Shown here one piece after another: positions 1 through 55,025 of a DNA stretch of 64,000 nucleotides. This DNA is from Malacoraja senta (taxonomy: Eukaryota). A program made the position numbers and the translations under genes. How positions within the stretch are numbered: position 1 is the first letter of the stretch; each line of letters opens with the position of its first letter. The notes beneath the pieces are model-generated. The model had not been told where the DNA came from and did no database searches. It saw only the letters and a list, made by a program, of their open reading frames with translations. The DNA lies in contig CM075989.1 in the NCBI GenBank assembly GCA_038087875.1, positions 14,262,001 through 14,326,000 of the forward strand, written 5' to 3'.

Positions 1-295
1 TGAGGATGCTGCTGATTAACTTGGACTTTAGTTCGTTTCTCTGCCGAGGTCTAGGAGAAATAATATACTCATTGTGAATAGTGCATTAGTGATTTTCTAG
101 AATGTATAGAATATTTTGATTATTTAATGACTGACATAGAAATTCATTTAGATAAGAACTTTATTGCAAATGATCTGTGTGGCTGTTACATTTGTTTTAA
201 AAGGTCCTTAAAATATGATTGATTTTAATTTTGCAACTGATAGTAGTGAAATTAACAAGTCAATTATTTTCTTCCTATGCTGCTTGGATAAACAG

Positions 296-301
296 GCTAT
301 G
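296..301 (+). CDS. UNC13C: Putative 6-nt microexon of UNC13C encoding Ala-Met (GCT ATG)
   Basis: Context is aaacAG|GCTATG|GTatgt, with a pyrimidine tract (264-276) and TGCTGC (278-283) upstream. Phase 0/0. It supplies the 'AM' that precedes 'TLAARK' in mammalian UNC13C as I recall it (…VRDV-AM-TLAARKSG…). Confidence 0.65.
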
Positions 302-479
302 GTATGTGCTTTCAAAATATTTAAATTATGTGAATGCTCTATTTTGTAAAATTCTGCAGGACAAGGATTTATACCAATGAATGAAATAAAAATCATGAGA
401 AACTTGGCTCGCTTCAACATTTGTGAATATTTAACCATTGAAATATGGCCATGTGTAGGAAGGAACTGCTTCCGACATT

Positions 480-4569: not shown

Positions 4570-6275
4570 ATAGTAAGAAAGGATTTTAATGTTTTCTCTC
4601 GTTAATCAATTGCAAAAATGGAGGCATACGTGTCCGATTATAATTTGGTTGGAACCCGTCCTTGAGCTCGCAAAGGGATACCTCCCTCAGCATGCGTAGG
4701 GATATGGGCACAAACCCAAAATCCTAATCATCCCACTCCGATAAGGAAGCTTGTTTTCCTTTCAGCTGCGAGTTCACTGTGTTCTGTGTGAAAGTTGTTA
4801 GTTGCATTTCATACTCCAACTTCTACCTTCATCCTGTTTCTCGTAACTATCTAGATGCCTCTCTTCACTCTCATGTCCTCTATGATCCCATATAATGTTA
4901 ATATATTCATAAGTATTTAATACTACAAAGAAAGTTAATAAAGAATATGTCTACATTTTGACACTTTTTTATCATCGTCTTATCACTATAAAAATTTTCG
5001 GTTCTTGCGTTTCCTTCTCGAGGGTTCCGTCTGAGTGATGGAGTTTACATCTGGTGGCATGTATCTAATTGGGTTTTTCTTTTACTTTTACTGCCGTTGG
5101 CATTGTTAGCAGCACCAAATATGGTCTTTTCCACCTAGAAGAGAAAGAATCTTTGTTCATTGCTCGCACTTAAACCTGATCTCCTGGTTTAAATGGATGC
5201 ATATTTCCTTTTGCCGGAGGGACCTGTGCCTGCTTAACTTTCTCATAGATTTTACTAACTGTTTCACACATGGCTTGAGCATATTTTTCATATTCCATAT
5301 TTCATCATTCCATATCTGGGCTACCGTCTCAGGAGTCATCGGGGATCGGGTTCCTGTTGTCATAGGTCGCCCCATCAATATCTCGTGAGGTGTTAGGCCC
5401 GTGTTTCTATTTTTCTGATTTCTCAGGGCATACATCACTTCGGGCATGGCGTCTGGCCACAACAACCTATTTTGCTGGCATACTTTGGCCAAAGTAGCTT
5501 TTATTTCCCCATTTACTCTTTTTTACCATCCCTGAGCACTGTGGTTGATATGGTATGTGTAATTTTACTGGAACCCAAGAGCCTTCGACAAGTTATGAAC
5601 TAATTTACTGGTGAAATGAGTGCCTCTGTCACTGTTTATTCCCATGGGTATCCCGGATCTAGGTATTATTTCTTTCATTAAAATATTGACTACCGTCCTT
5701 GCATCATCCCTCCTAGTGGGGTATGCTTCCACCCATCTGGAGAATATATCAACTATGACCAGAATGTACTTAAAACCCTTTGCTGCGGACATATGTACAA
5801 AATCAATTTGCAAATTCTCAAAAGGCATTTCGGGTTGTGATAGGTGATCAGATTTTGCAGGTGTCTTCCCTCTATTATTTTGTTGACACACCAGACATGT
5901 TCTTGCAAGTTTATCAATTATGACTGTTATACCTGGTGCATACCCTTGTTGGGACAATGCATGTGCCGTCCCCTCTTTTTCCATATGAGCCTGTCCATGG
6001 GACAAAAATTGGCTCCTGGGACAAACTACCTGACCATCAGGGTGAACCCAGACAATGGGGTCTTGATAACATCCTGCTTTGCTCAGGGAATTATTTTCCT
6101 GGGGTGATGCTCGGCTCTGGGCACCCTGTAACTGGGTTACATCAATGCTAACCAGGAGCTTTCTTTGTGCTGCAGACTTAATTTTAACCGCTTGTAATTG
6201 CGGGGTTTGCCCGAGGGCAACCTGTTTGGCTACATAATCAGCTGATCTGTTTCCCTTTGATACATCATCATCTGA
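4570..6275 (-). mobile_element. Decayed endogenous retrovirus fragment (class I, gamma/epsilon-like): RNase H end, integrase, possible env remnant
   Basis: KGNRSADYVAKQVA (RNase H end, ~6270-6220); HHCC finger (HGQAH…CLVC); PFENLQIDF, IFSRWVEAYPT, IIPRSGIP…SDRG; TGLTPHEILMGRP; WKRPYLVLL C-terminal motif. Stop at 5565 and frameshifts; no LTR seen. Confidence 0.85.
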
Positions 6276-6583
6276 TATGCCCTCTAATATTTGATATTTC
6301 CATCATGGGAATAGGTTCTGACTGTCTATAAGTCAGACTCTCATAATTTTGTATATCACAAACAATAGAGGTCCCACTCTGATCCCTGCAGAACACTACT
6401 GGTTACAGACCTTCATGTTTGAATCTACCAGTCTACCAAAACACCGTGGATCTTCTGGCTCAACCTACCTTTGGAGGAATGAAATGTTCAATTTTGATGT
6501 TACACATGACACTTTAATTATTGTTACATATTATTAAACAATTGTCCTATTTCTAATTGGGAGAATTAACTTGAAGTAATTTA

Positions 6584-6966: not shown

Positions 6967-7287
<321 letters not shown>

Positions 7288-8787: not shown

Positions 8788-9015
8788 GAGCAGCCGAGAA
8801 AAGCTCAAAGCATGGTGCAGAGGATAAAACGCAAAACATCATTGCAGCCATGAAGGAAAGAATGAAAGTCAGAGAGCAAAACAAGCCTGAGATTTTTGAG
8901 TTGATCCAAGCACAATTTGAAGTGTCCAAAGAAGACTATGCACGGCACTTGAAGGCAGCAAAACAGAGTGTGTTGGAGGGGACGTCCAAGTGGTCAGCAA
9001 AGATCAAAATAACAG
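8788..9015 (+). CDS. UNC13C: UNC13C coding exon: C1-C2B linker
   Basis: (R)[26 protein letters not shown]…[20 protein letters not shown]; tttcAG / GTcagg; 228 nt; phase matches neighbours. Confidence 0.96.
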
Positions 9016-11193: not shown

Positions 11194-11335
11194 TGCTCTG
11201 TGCTCAGGGTTTACAAGCAAAAGATAAGACTGGCTCGAGTGACCCTTACGTCACAGTGCAAGTGGGTAAAACCAAAAGGAGGACCAAAACCATTTTTGGG
11301 AATCTCAACCCCAGCTGGGATGAAACATTTCATTT
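11194..11335 (+). CDS. UNC13C: UNC13C coding exon: C2B domain, first half
   Basis: (V)[46 protein letters not shown](F); caacAG / GTAAGT; 142 nt. Not shown in this frame in the ORF track. Confidence 0.96.
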
Positions 11336-21420: not shown

Positions 21421-23353
21421 CCAGCAGAGGAGGACAAAGGGCTTAATTAGGAAAGGAAAAATAGATTATGAAAGAAAACTGGCAGGGAACATAACAAACT
21501 GACTGCAAAAGTTTTTATAGATATGTGAAAAGAAAGAGATTAGTTAAAACAAATGTAGGTCCCTTGCAGTCAGAAACAGGTGAGTTGATCATGGGGAACA
21601 AGGATATGGCGGACCAATTGAATAACTACTTTGGTTCCGTCTTCACTAAGGAAGACATAAATAATCTGCCGGAAATAGCAGGGGACCGCGGGTCAAAGGA
21701 GTTGGAGGAATTGAGTGAAATCCAGGTTAGTCGGGAAGTGGTGTTGGGTAAATTGAATGGATTAAAGGCCGATAAATCCCCAGAGCCAGGTAGGCTGCAT
21801 CCCAGAGTACTTAAGGAAGTAGCTCCAGAAATAGTGGATGCATTAGTAATAATCTTTCAAAACTCTTTAGATTCTGGAGTAGTTCCTGAGGATTGGCGGG
21901 TAGCAAACGTAACCCCACTTTTTAAGAAGGGAGGGAGAGAGAAAACGGGGAATTACAGACCAGTTAGTCTAACATCGTTAGTGGGGAAACTGCTAGAGTC
22001 AGTTATTAAAGATGGGATAGCAGCACATTTGGAAAGTGGTGAAATCATTGGACAAAGTCAGCATGGATTTACGAAAGGTAAATCATGTCTGACGAATCTT
22101 ATAGAATTTTTCGAGGATGTAACTAGTAGCGTGGATAGGGGAGAACCAGTGGATGTGGTGTATCTGGACTTCCAGAAGGCTTTCGACAAGGTCCCACATA
22201 AGAGATTCGTATACAAACTTAAAGCACATGGCATTGGGGGTTCAGTATTGATGTGGATAGAGAACTGGCTGGCAAACAGGAAGCAAAGAGTAGGAGTAAC
22301 CGGGTCCTTTTCACAATGGCAGGCAGTGACTGGTGGGGTACCGCAAGGCTCAGTGCTGGGACTCCAGCTATTTACAATATATATTAATGATCTGGATGAG
22401 GGAATTGAAGGCAATATCTCCAAGTTTGCAGATGACACTAAGCTGGGGGGCAGTGTTAGCTGTGAGGAGGATGCTAGGAGACTGCAAGGTGACTTGGATT
22501 GGCTGGGTGAGTGGGCAAATGTTTGGCAGATGCAGTATAATGTGGATAAATGTGAGGTTATCCATTTTGGTGGCAAAAACAGGAAAGCAGACTATTATCT
22601 AAATGGTGGCCGACTAGGGAAAGGGGAGATGCAGCGAGACCTGGGTGTCATGGTACACCAGTTATTGAAAGTAGGCATGCAGGTGCAGCAGGCAGTGAAG
22701 AAAGCGAATGGTATGTTAGCTTTCATAGCAAAAGGATTTGAGTATAGGAGCAGGGAGGTTCTACTGCAGTTGTACAGGGTCTTGGTGAGACCACACCTGG
22801 AGTATTGCGTACAGTTTTGGTCTCCAAATCTGAGGAAGGACATTATTGCCATAGAGGGAGTGCAGAGAAGGTTCACCAGACTGATTCCTGGGATGTCAGG
22901 ACTGTCTTACGAAGAAAGACTGGATAGACTTGGTTTATACTCTCTAGAATTTAGGAGATTGAGAGGGGATCTTATAGAAACTTACAAAATTCTTAAGGGG
23001 TTGGACAGGCTAGATGCAGGAAGATTGCTCCCGATGTTGGGGAAGTCCAGGACAAGGGGTCACAGCTTAAGGATAAGGGGGAAATCCTTTAAAACCGAGA
23101 TGAGAAGAACTTTTTTCACACAGAGCCGTGAATCTCTGGAACTCTCTGCCACAGAGGGTAGTCGAGGCCAGTTCATTGGCTATATTTAAGAGGGAGTTAG
23201 ATGTGGCCCTTGTGGCTAAAGGGATCAGAGGGTATGGAGAGAAGGCAGGTACGGGATACTGAGTTGGATGATCAGCCATGATCATATTGAATGGCGGTGC
23301 AGGCTCGAAGGGCCGAATGGCCTACTCCTGCACCTAATTTCTATGTTTCTATA
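21421..23353 (+). mobile_element. Young 5'-truncated CR1 LINE, same family as 18311-20073, with a late frameshift
   Basis: 554-aa ORF with RT motifs (KFADD); frame diverges after FFTQ (~23120); 3' UTR and tail ctatgtttctat. Confidence 0.95.
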
Positions 23354-34169: not shown

Positions 34170-34840
34170 AAAGTTGACAACAAAGTGGTAATACAAGTAG
34201 ACAGAATGGTAAAGAAGGTGTATGGTATGTTTGCTTCCATCAACCTAGGCATGAAGTATAAGAATTAGTAAGTAACGTAGCAGCTTTATGAAACATTGGT
34301 GAGACTGTATTTCAAGTAATTGTGTACAGTTCTGGGCGCACCATTAGATAAGATGTGGAGGCTTTGGAGAGGATGCAGAAGAGATTTACCAGAATGCTGC
34401 TTGGATTAGAGGCTATGATCTATAAGGAAAGGTTAGACAAACTTGGATGTTTTCTCTGGAGTGTCAGAGACTGAGGGGAAACCTGATAGAATTATATCAA
34501 ATTCTAAGATGGATAGATAAGGTTGATGGTCAGAACCTTTTTTTCCAGGGTGGAAGTGTCAAAGACTAGAGGGCATAGTTTTAGGTCAGTGGGGGGGGGA
34601 ATTTAAAGGATATGTACGGGACAAGTATTTTACACAGAAAGTGGTGGATGCCTGGAAAGTGTTGCCAGGGTTAGTGGTGGGAGCAGATACATTAGTAGCA
34701 TTTAAAACGCATATGGATATGCATGGAATGATGGAATATGGATCACGTGAAGGTAAGAAAGATTAGTTTAACTTGACATCATGTTGGGCATATACATTGT
34801 GGGAGGAATAGTCCGCACCTGTGCTATACTATTCTAAGTT
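34170..34840 (+). mobile_element. Decayed CR1 LINE 3' portion
   Basis: gctttggagaggatgcagaagagatttaccagaatgctg…gtcaaagactagagggcatag, matching the CR1 C-terminus. Confidence 0.8.
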
Positions 34841-35732
34841 TATGTGCAGAAAGATTGTGTCCATGAATTGCTAAATAAACTCTTTCCAATCAGTTAGAGT
34901 TAATGCACTGTCATGTGAGTAACTTGTAAACGCTGGAATTTAACTTGCTGCAATGCCATCCTAGATATGGAGAAACAGAAGCTGTGGTTCCTATTAAACA
35001 GTAAACCTAGCACTATTTTTGTTGGGAATGAATGGTCCAGTGGCACAGCAGACAGTGCTCCTGCCTCTCTGTTCCAGCGACCCAGGTTTGATCCTGATTT
35101 CTGGTGCTGGCTGTGCAAAGTTCTTACATTTTCCATGGAGCTGTGTTGAATTGCACCAATGTCTCAAGGATGTGATGGTTGATAGGTTTGTTGGCCGCTA
35201 TATATTGCCCCCTCCTCTATGTGTGTCGTAGGAGAATCAGAGAGGAGTTAATGGGCATATTGGGGAGAATAGTTTGTGAGTCATTGGTCTGAGAGCCAGA
35301 ATAATCTCAGTGATCCATGTGCCATTTTTTCTGTACTGTAAGGAAATATAAAATAAGAAATGTAATTTGCATTTCCAGATTTTCTTTCTCACTTTTTATT
35401 TCTCTGAATTTATTCTCCCTTACCATGTGTTTTTTTCACAACTCTTCACACTACATAACAATCTATTATATTTTTTAATTTATTTAAATACATTTCTAGT
35501 TTATATAATGAGAATCATGAAACAATGTTTTAGTTTGAAGAGTCAATTTACAGCATTGGTAACGGTGATTATCTGTGATTGGAAGAAGGCTCTGAGCAAC
35601 CTCTTCCACTTCACTAATAATGTACTGAGCTATTGCATGTTATTTATAAATCATAACTGTCCAAATAAGCACTCAGATAATTAGTTCCATTGTAAAATAG
35701 AAAAAAATTAAACAACTATATCTTTTCCACAG

Positions 35733-35848
35733 AGAAGAGAACGGACAAATCTGCTGTTTCTGGAGCAATTAGAATGAAAATCGCTGTTGAAATTAAAGGA
35801 GAAGAGAAAGTGGCCCCGTATCATGTGCAGTACACATGCTTACATGAG
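35733..35848 (+). CDS. UNC13C: UNC13C coding exon: end of C2B
   Basis: (E)[38 protein letters not shown]; ccacAG / GTGAGG; 116 nt. Confidence 0.96.
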
Positions 35849-36029
35849 GTGAGGGAACAGAGTAAATATGTGCATTTATATAACATTGCATGAGGCCATC
35901 TTGGATATTGACATTGAGTCAGAGAGTGGCCAAGGATGGATGTATGTGAGCAATGCTGTTGAATGGGGATCAAATCTGGAGGTAGGCTGGCTGAAAACAG
36001 ACAAGTGCCACAAGTGATCATGATGATCA

Positions 36030-36600
36030 ATTTTAGTCCTCAGTCTTTTGGTCAGGGTTGTGGAGAGGCTGCTTTGGGATGGATTACAGCAAGGATGTGG
36101 AGGCATTGCAATGGGTGCAGAAGAGGTTTACCAGAATTCTGTTTGGATTAGGGGCTACTAACTATAAAGAGCAATTGGGCAAACTTGGATTGTTTTCTCT
36201 GGAGCATAAGAAGCTAATGGGAGACCTGATAGAAGTTTATAAAATTATGGAAGGCACAGATGGGGTAAACAAACAGATTCATTTTCCCAGGGTGGAAATG
36301 TCAAAGACTAGAGAGCACAGCTTTAAAGTGAGAGGGGGGGGGGGGGGGGGAGTTTAAAGGAGATGTGTGCAGCAAGTTTTATACACAGAAAGTTGTGATT
36401 TTACACAGAAAGTACGTGCTCCAAGCATGGTGGTGGAGGCAAATATGATCATGCCATTTAAGGGGCTCCTAGATAGACATGTGGATAAGCAGGGAATGAA
36501 AGGATGTGGAGCATGTGCAGGCAAAGATGATTAGTTTAACTTGGTATTATGTTCCGCACAGACATTATGGACTGAAGGACCTGTTGCTGTGCTGTCTATT
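36030..36600 (+). mobile_element. Decayed CR1 LINE 3' portion
   Basis: YSKDVEALQWVQKRFTRILFGL…LGLFSLEHKKLMGDLIEVYKIM. Confidence 0.85.
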
Positions 36601-36821
36601 ATAATTAGTGTGAGTGGGGGTTTGGGGGAAAGAAAAATTAATGGTGAGGATGAAGAAAATGTTCATCTGTGACTATAAAAAAGAACAAATGTCAGAAGAA
36701 GTGAAATAGAATAGAAGGAAAAAGCACTGCTTACCTTCATGGGGTGTGGCTTTGTTCCCAAATATACCCTGCGACATTTGTTCCCTGAACCACTTGGTCT
36801 AATTTACCTTGCAACACTCTA

Positions 36822-37580
36822 AAGCACCAAGTTCCTGGGAGTACACATCACAGATGATCAGACATGGTCCACCAACACCATCTCCCTAGTCAAGAAAGCA
36901 CAGCAACGCCTCCACTTCCTTCGACGGATGAGGAGAGCCGACCTCCCCCCTTCTGCCCTCACAACTTTTTACAGGGGTGCCATTGAGAGCATTCTTACCA
37001 GCAGTCTCTCAGTCTGGTATGGCAGTTGCTCTGCTGCTGACCAGAAGGCCCTACAGAGAGTGGTGAGGACAGCGGAGAAGATCACTAGATCACCCCAACC
37101 AGCAATCCAGGACTTATACCCATCTCGCTGTCGCAAGAGAGCAACCAATATCATCAAAGACACCACCCACCCAGCACACAAACTGTTCACCCTCCTACCA
37201 TCCGGCAAGCGCTACCGCAGCATGCGGAGCAAAACCACAAGATTCAAAAACAGCTTTTTCCCTCAGGCCATCAGACTACTCAACACACTCAAGAAAATAC
37301 CATGAACATTACACAAACAAAGACCAACTGACTGTCAAATTAACTTTAACCCAATGTCTGCAGTATGCTATTTGCACTTTTCTATATTGCACCTTTTATT
37401 AATGAATATTTTATATAATGTATATGTCCATTGTCTATTTTTATTGGTATATTGTCTGTCTGTGTTATAAATATTACGTGCACATTGGAGTATGGGGAAA
37501 CGCAATTTCAATCCTCTGTGTAACTACTTGTTGCATTATTTGAATTGACAATAAAGTTATTATTACTATTACTATTACTA
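36822..37580 (+). mobile_element. Rex1/Babar LINE 3' fragment
   Basis: KFLGVHITDD…KKAQQRLHFLRR…LTTFYRGAIESILTSSLSVWYGSC…LLPSGKRYRS…FKNSFFPQAIRLLN; AATAAA plus (tattac)n tail. Confidence 0.9.
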
Positions 37581-43977: not shown

Positions 43978-44455
43978 TTGGAGATAACGGGAGCTCGCGG
44001 GTCCGGGTGGGAGACCGCTTTTCGGAGCACCCGCAACGCAACTTCTCCAGCCCGTGTCGCGGGGTTGGAACGACCCGGAGCGGGGCCATACATCGCCCAG
44101 CGCGGCTTTAATGGACGCGGGACATTCCAGCGCCCGCCGGGGACTCCAACGTTGTGACATTTGGGCCTGGAGCAGGGCCGTACATTGCCCGGCGCTGCCT
44201 TAAATGGCCGTGGGACTTACCATCGCCTGCCTGGGGCTTCGACATCGGGAGAGAAATGGTGCAGGGGAGACAAAAGACTTTGCCTTCCATCACAGTGAGG
44301 AGGAGATTCACTGTGATGGATGTTTGTGTAAATTGAATTGTTTGTGTGTCTTGTAGGAATTGTTTTGTTTGTATGGCTGTGGAAACGGAGTTTCGTTTGA
44401 GCCTCACTGAGGTTCAAATGACATGGAATAAATATTGTATTGTATTGTATTGTAT
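43978..44455 (+). mobile_element. GC/CpG-rich non-coding retroposon related to 23522-24278
   Basis: Shares tgccttcc(a/c)tcacagtga; ends AATAAA plus (attgt)n. Confidence 0.55.
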
Positions 44456-54530: not shown

Positions 54531-54598
54531 CTATAACATTACATCCTAATTATCGCACTCAGATAAAGGAAAACATGCCATATGTGTTCTTTGCCATC

Positions 54599-55025
54599 CT
54601 AGAATTTAGGAGATTGAGAGGGGATCTTATAGAAACGTACAAGATTCTTATGGGGTTGGACAGGCTAGATGCAGAAAGATTGTTCCCGATGTTGGGGAAG
54701 TCCAGGACAAGGGGTCACAGCTTAAGGATAAGGGGGAAATCCTTTAGGACCGAGATGAGGAAAAACTTTTTCACACAGAGAGTGGTGAATCTCTGGAACT
54801 CTCTGCCACAGAGGGTAGTTGAGGCCAGTTCATTGGCTATATTTAAGAAGGAATTAGATGTGGCCCTTGTGGCTAAAGGGATCAGGGGGTATGGAGAGAA
54901 GGCAGGTACGGGATACTGAGTTGGATGATCAGCCATGATCGTATTGAATGGCGGTGCAGGCTCGAAGGGCTGAATGGCCTACTCCTGCACCTATTTTCTA
55001 TGTATCTATGTATCTATGTATCTAT
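54599..55025 (+). mobile_element. Young CR1 3' fragment, same family as the 18.3 and 21.4 kb copies
   Basis: LEFRRLRGDLIETYKILMGLDRLDAERLFPMLGKSRTRGHSLRIRG…GYGEKAGTGY*; (tatgtatc)n tail. Confidence 0.93.

Follow-up and report, generated by a model that had tools for sequence, protein, structure and literature searches.

A conserved 6-nt Ala-Met microexon of UNC13C in the skate Malacoraja senta, with a splice layout like that expected of SRRM3/4 targets

Introduction

A 6-nt microexon located between CaM and C1 is described for mammalian Unc13c in the available text of PMC12287369 and is also evident from mouse proteins. A second microexon of the Munc13 family, MmuEX0050598 of mouse Unc13b, is likewise 6 nt in length, depends on nSR100 and on eMIC activity and affects neurite growth (PMC4387716; PMC8797185). 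The supplement of PMC8797185 lists the Unc13b exon and a 9-nt exon of fly unc-13 as eMIC-dependent, along with a 6-nt exon of mouse Unc13a whose position in the gene is unverified. In Caenorhabditis elegans and Drosophila, an unc-13 microexon is reported to occupy the very same position between CaM and C1, and in the worm both isoforms are needed, in different neurons (PMC12287369, in the portion available). The same portion relates that forced inclusion or skipping of the worm exon alters behaviour and synaptic transmission, and proposes the included form as the more active one.

Targets of SRRM3/4 are characterized by a distal branch point and polypyrimidine tract with UGC near the AG, and the human median branch distance is given as 45 nt for such targets versus 34 nt for comparison (available parts of 10.1101/2024.09.17.613571, PMC12871342 and PMC8797185). 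UGC is neither universal nor strictly required among them, as far as the accessible text of 10.1101/2024.09.17.613571 goes. Here we describe a 6-nt cassette exon in skate UNC13C, the gene for Munc13-3, a protein that prepares synaptic vesicles for release; the exon is likely to be included mainly in neurons via SRRM3/4 and likely to tune vesicle priming, an account which, taken as a whole, we hold with reasonable confidence.

Results

The DNA analysed here (the window) spans 64 kb of contig CM075989.1 of Malacoraja senta. A tblastn search with the UNC13C protein of the thorny skate, Amblyraja radiata (P0153), identified nine coding exons in the window between 2712 and 58286, all on the forward strand. 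The first is a 72-nt exon (2712-2783) encoding linker sequence ahead of helix H1 and C1, and its peptide is identical to those of Amblyraja and Leucoraja at 24 of 24 residues. The second (7054-7273) encodes helix H1 and the C1 domain, as supported by a PF00130 match, alignment and tblastn, whilst seven further exons (8788-58286; acceptors at 8788, 11194, 26709, 35733, 38145, 52245 and 58218) encode linker helices, C2B and the start of the pre-MUN region. The acceptors at 11194 and 38145, apparently constitutive, display UGC at -8 and -9. Six exons were compared with Amblyraja and Leucoraja UNC13C and displayed identities of 24/24, 72/73, 74/75, 56/56, 38/38 and 23/23; sharks and mammals matched the exons of the window less well. 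In a tree of 16 rows, the window gene grouped with UNC13C and apart from UNC13A with support of 100/100. The tree contained no UNC13B rows, and UNC13B is therefore set aside only by source names and by the UNC13C-type N-terminus of P0153. Near-identity to skate UNC13C, domain content and the tree bear out the gene assignment made by an earlier, sequence-only reading of the window.

Several other features of the gene and its surroundings were observed. Skates and sharks carry a short UNC13C form of approximately 1,600 residues with a different N-terminal part (P0022, P0121, P0126) beside the form of 2,250 residues (P0153, P0144). In several databases, copies from sharks and rays often go under the name 'unc-13 homolog B-like', and two such rows in our tree fall in the UNC13C group. 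Integrase remnants are present in a UNC13C intron at 5157-6302 on the reverse strand, comprising an rve match (E 2.9e-18) and an integrase zinc-binding domain split over two frames, which we take to be Gypsy-like. Open frames at 21871-23248, 34549-37062 and 54563-54905 resemble fragments of LINE reverse transcriptase, presumably of CR1/L2 type. Two related short repeats of very high copy number, at approximately 469-575 and 2039-2170, reached read depths in the millions in four sequencing runs and are probably SINEs.

Re-reading the window upstream of the 2712-2783 exon placed every splice element exactly where the sequence-only reading had put it, all on the forward strand. A candidate branch point, TTAAC (252-256), was predicted by pattern, with the branch A at 255 or -41 relative to the exon. 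It is followed by a polypyrimidine tract (264-276) in which 12 of 13 bases are pyrimidines and which is set back from the 3' splice site, and by TGCTGC (278-283; UGCUGC in RNA), a putative SRRM3/4 enhancer located between the tract and the AG, with UGC starting at -18 and -15. The setback is also reflected in pyrimidine content, with 15 of 20 bases at -35 to -16 versus 11 of 20 at -23 to -4. The 3' splice site CAG (293-295; AG 294-295) is preceded by 34 nt free of AG. The microexon itself, GCTATG (296-301), encodes Ala-Met, as supported by its sequence and by isoform pairs of other species, and is followed by the 5' splice site GTATGT (302-307). This donor scored 7.9 versus 9.3 for that of the next exon, both being rough weight-matrix values. 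The reading frame through 296-301 is open into the exons at 2712 and 7054, which upholds the earlier claim that the exon preserves frame. With its 6 nt and canonical AG/GT borders, the site lies within the microexon class, neural microexons having a size range of 3-27 nt (PMC4387716). Predicted RNA folding of 236-330 revealed nothing special (z = 0.04).

Protein models of other species were then compared at the corresponding junction. In A. radiata, UNC13C isoform X1 (XP_032906566.1) minus Ala-Met (AM) is exactly isoform X2 (XP_032906567.1), AM standing immediately ahead of the residues encoded by 2712-2783; isoform X3 (XP_032906568.1) also carries AM. All nine isoform pairs examined, from eight species ranging from sharks to mouse, differed by AM only (Amblyraja, Mustelus, Heptranchias, two from Scyliorhinus canicula, coelacanth, Xenopus tropicalis, mouse and Mus pahari); the pairs had been picked for a length difference of two residues, and the isoforms are annotated models, mostly computed. 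For mouse Unc13c, the reference protein (NP_001074622/Q8K0T7) includes AM and XP_006510997 omits it. An upstream exon that already encodes AM had been named in the sequence-only reading as what would speak against the microexon; isoforms without AM exist in skate and sharks, which removes the need for AM to be encoded in the upstream exon. An alternative acceptor at 2712 was also considered as the source of AM and rejected, as the 6 nt upstream read Gln-Gln.

Among the 120 UNC13C-search matches listed, the junction contained AM in 72, AL in 20, no insert in 24 and another dipeptide (VK, FQ or AQ) in four, a tally that leans towards inclusion because the query carried AM. Among the 120 teleost UNC13A-type matches listed, AM was present in 104 and absent without replacement in nine, with VK or VR in six and one other, and on this basis the UNC13A paralogue carries the same optional dipeptide. 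A sample of 74 proteins comprised 22 with AM, six with AL, 31 that skip and 15 in which the junction was not parsed, whilst 50 models mostly from cartilaginous fish comprised two with AM, 42 that skip and six without the junction. Both skate-like Logan proteins containing the junction (P0022, P0126) skip, and AM was found in none of the Leucoraja, Rhinoraja, Mobula, Narcine and Callorhinchus models sampled, these being samples rather than full lists. The conservation across jawed vertebrates anticipated from the sequence was thus recovered, with AM at the same junction, or AL in the case of most teleosts and of some amphibians. The further suggestion that gene predictors miss the exon fared unevenly: it held for 42 of those 50 models and failed for RefSeq models of several species, the exon being present in those of Amblyraja radiata, S. 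canicula, Mustelus, Heptranchias, coelacanth, frog and mouse.

Variation in the dipeptide was also noted. AL was found in most sampled teleosts, in Polypterus, in two caecilians and in Xenopus laevis, whereas pike, X. tropicalis, lungfish and sharks have AM, indicative of repeated switching between Met and Leu (P0169, P0178, P0209, P0221, P0428, P0437 and others). VK, VR or FQ occupied the place of the microexon in P0245, P0247, P0250, P0298, P0301 and P0372-P0375; such models probably represent intron ends filling the two-residue gap.

DNA contigs from related organisms (designated X1, X3, X4 and X6, independently of isoform numbers) were aligned over the exon, and for the covering contigs of X3, X4 and X6 the listing comprised 15 of 19, nine of 16 and eight of 35 differences, respectively. 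The one listed change inside 296-301, 298 T>G in X3, X4 and X6, is silent and keeps Ala. Since only three of the 18 possible changes in GCTATG are silent and 298 T>G counts as one shared event, we regard it as modest support for a coding exon. Four places within 236-330 were changed among the differences listed, none of them at the AG, GT or UGC. The X1 contig covering 16-433 differed at two places, both outside 236-330. The branch sequence TTAAC at 252-256 is CTAAC in X3 and X4 (252 T>C); the branch motif given in the available text of PMC8797185 is CUAAY, to which CTAAC is closer than TTAAC.

We also estimated how far chance could explain such a site. A crude scan of the 64 kb identified 51 look-alikes of the form YAG, 3n nucleotides, GT on the forward strand and 36 on the reverse, of which five and two, respectively, also passed a filter for UGC, pyrimidines and branch point (seven in 128 kb of both strands). 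The splice pattern alone at 296-301 is accordingly not rare and not decisive. YAGGCNATGGT occurred twice, on the forward strand at this exon and on the reverse strand at 44219, versus 0.24 matches expected on both strands together. A looser pattern, with Leu or Val also allowed at the second codon, gave three matches, no excess over chance with 1.53 expected. Seven AG-N6-GT sites are present in 1-2711, and Ala-Met is encoded by one of them, namely 296-301. What sets 296-301 apart from the look-alikes is that it encodes exactly the two residues separating known isoforms.

Discussion

The acceptor of 296-301 fits the displaced layout of SRRM3/4 targets, with a predicted branch A at -41, a tract set back from the splice site and UGC between tract and AG. 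Judged by this layout, neural inclusion driven by SRRM3/4 appears probable. The weight of the individual motif differs with its form. A single UGC at -20 to -6 was found at 356 of the 1906 YAG sites of the window, whilst tandem UGCUGC was rarer, at 14 of 1906, and within the gene UGC lies near the AG in three of ten acceptors, the microexon and two of the nine others. A single UGC is hence weak evidence of SRRM dependence. Published tables of regulated exons contained other members of the family: the nSR100 knockout tables from mouse (PMC4387716 supplement, all but file 6) included Unc13b only and no Unc13c, and no Unc13c row was found in the mouse eMIC table (PMC8797185 supplement). The zebrafish neural-exon table (PMC12626424 supplement) lacked any entry for unc13c and any unc13 exon of 6 nt. 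Absence from these mouse and zebrafish tables may reflect lack of coverage. The supplements of PMC12626420 (all but file 13) and PMC12868881 yielded no unc13 match. The SRRM4 result for Unc13b may not transfer to Unc13c, because the Unc13b exon is called unrelated to the worm exon in the available text of PMC12287369.

The absence of Unc13c from the mouse nSR100, mouse eMIC and zebrafish tables is one of the observations that suit a different regulator, whereby the exon would be real and optional but its inclusion set mainly by MBNL or ELAV-type proteins with PRPF40, varying by neuron type. The worm unc-13 exon requires EXC-7, MBL-1 and PRP-40 rather than an eMIC protein (PMC12287369 and 10.64898/2026.09.14.751627, in the parts available), and YGCY is present downstream of the skate exon at 307, 335, 410 and 467 as raw pattern matches. 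Worms, however, are stated to lack the eMIC domain in the available part of 10.64898/2026.09.14.751627, whereas the fly exon is among those that depend on it (PMC8797185 supplement). The upstream layout in the skate, including the rare UGCUGC, moreover fits eMIC targets, and neither exact worm element was found in 302-520. We consider MBNL- or ELAV-type control unlikely on balance, and favour SRRM3/4.

Under SRRM3/4 control, the exon would be skipped by default, owing to the distance of its branch point and pyrimidine tract from the AG. In cells with SRRM3/4, binding of this protein to UGCUGC at -18 to -13 would aid early spliceosome assembly and lead to inclusion. Default skipping with inclusion promoted in this way through UGCUGC is, from the arrangement of the motifs, the course of events we expect to apply.

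That 296-301 is spliced as an exon in M. senta seems to us close to certain on the sequence evidence. It is very improbable that the exon is an ancestral one used rarely or never in this skate lineage. Sampled ray and skate models outside Amblyraja mostly skip, and the branch site here is TTAAC versus CTAAC in X3 and X4, both of which would suit disuse. Yet neither the frame nor either splice site is damaged, AM is present in two models (X1 and X3) of the closely related Amblyraja, and tissue sampling together with the difficulty of mapping short exons would readily account for models that lack the exon. Least credible of all is that AM derives from an alternative donor of the upstream exon and that 296-301 is a chance look-alike: this exon and its donor lie outside the window, so that the alternative is set aside indirectly, and microexon-like patterns do arise by chance (the seven in 128 kb noted above), but a YAG/GT site encoding Ala-Met, expected 0.24 times on both strands of the window together, was found in the right intron and in the right orientation, the available text of PMC12287369 presents the mammalian event as a microexon, and the change within the exon in relatives is silent.

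At the protein level, AM corresponds to residues 1094-1095 of P0153, and the Pfam match for C1 begins at residue 1141. Alignment places the beginning of exon 7054 within helix H1, approximately 25 residues after AM, and C1 follows 45 residues after AM. In rat Munc13-1, helix H1 precedes C1 and packs against MUN, and release probability rises when the helix is disrupted (available portions of PMC5344669 and PMC11991699). At cerebellar synapses, release probability is set by Munc13-3 (PMC4441738, in part). A search of the PDB with the 72-nt exon alone gave no match. With a junction query, two matching chains were found, both starting at the seventh residue after Met, such that no solved chain aligns over AM. 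AlphaFold models were unusable over their first 156-159 residues, with a mean pLDDT of 51 for an AM form (P0052, rhinoceros) and below 50 for a skipped form (P0155, manta). We propose that Ala-Met would lengthen the linker before H1 and thereby alter how the N-terminal regulatory region is coupled to the priming core, and that release strength could in this way be adjusted differently in different cell types, an effect like that proposed for the worm exon. By analogy, tuning of priming and release through this linker is a plausible and evenly balanced proposition. A broader scheme, which we regard as doubtful, would hold that the AM exon predates the UNC13A/UNC13C split, is the same ancestral exon as the VLK exon of worm and fly, and acts as a neuron-type switch of release probability in Munc13-3, through the linker ahead of H1 or a basic, docking-site-like stretch just before H1.

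The skate exon is real, conserved and already known, the last because the mammalian Unc13c exon is in print (PMC12287369, available text) and RefSeq models with it exist for thorny skate and sharks. The literature searched, largely outside subscription journals, yielded no paper on the exon in cartilaginous fish and none on what it does in Munc13-3. The gain here is a small one, namely that the mammalian microexon is extended to another cartilaginous fish, in which its splice signals are arranged as would be expected for an SRRM3/4 target. Retained from sharks to mice, the two-residue insert also offers a cheap handle on the control of priming by the linker ahead of H1.

In comparison with known systems, the unc-13 exon of C. 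elegans and Drosophila shares the position and differs in being 9 nt long and encoding VLK. The available texts of PMC8797185 and PMC12287369 disagree or are vague on homology across paralogues and phyla, and in the former convergence of the fly and mouse unc-13 exons is favoured over common ancestry. Mouse Unc13b MmuEX0050598 differs in belonging to another paralogue, and it is this exon that the accessible part of PMC12287369 separates from that of the worm. The nearest annotated counterpart is UNC13C of Amblyraja radiata, in which X1 and X2 differ by AM only and the exons are near-identical, the window itself being not identical to Amblyraja. With the mammalian Unc13c microexon, the skate site shares the gene, the junction, the length and the dipeptide; there is no difference of substance over the features compared, and the skate site is its orthologue.
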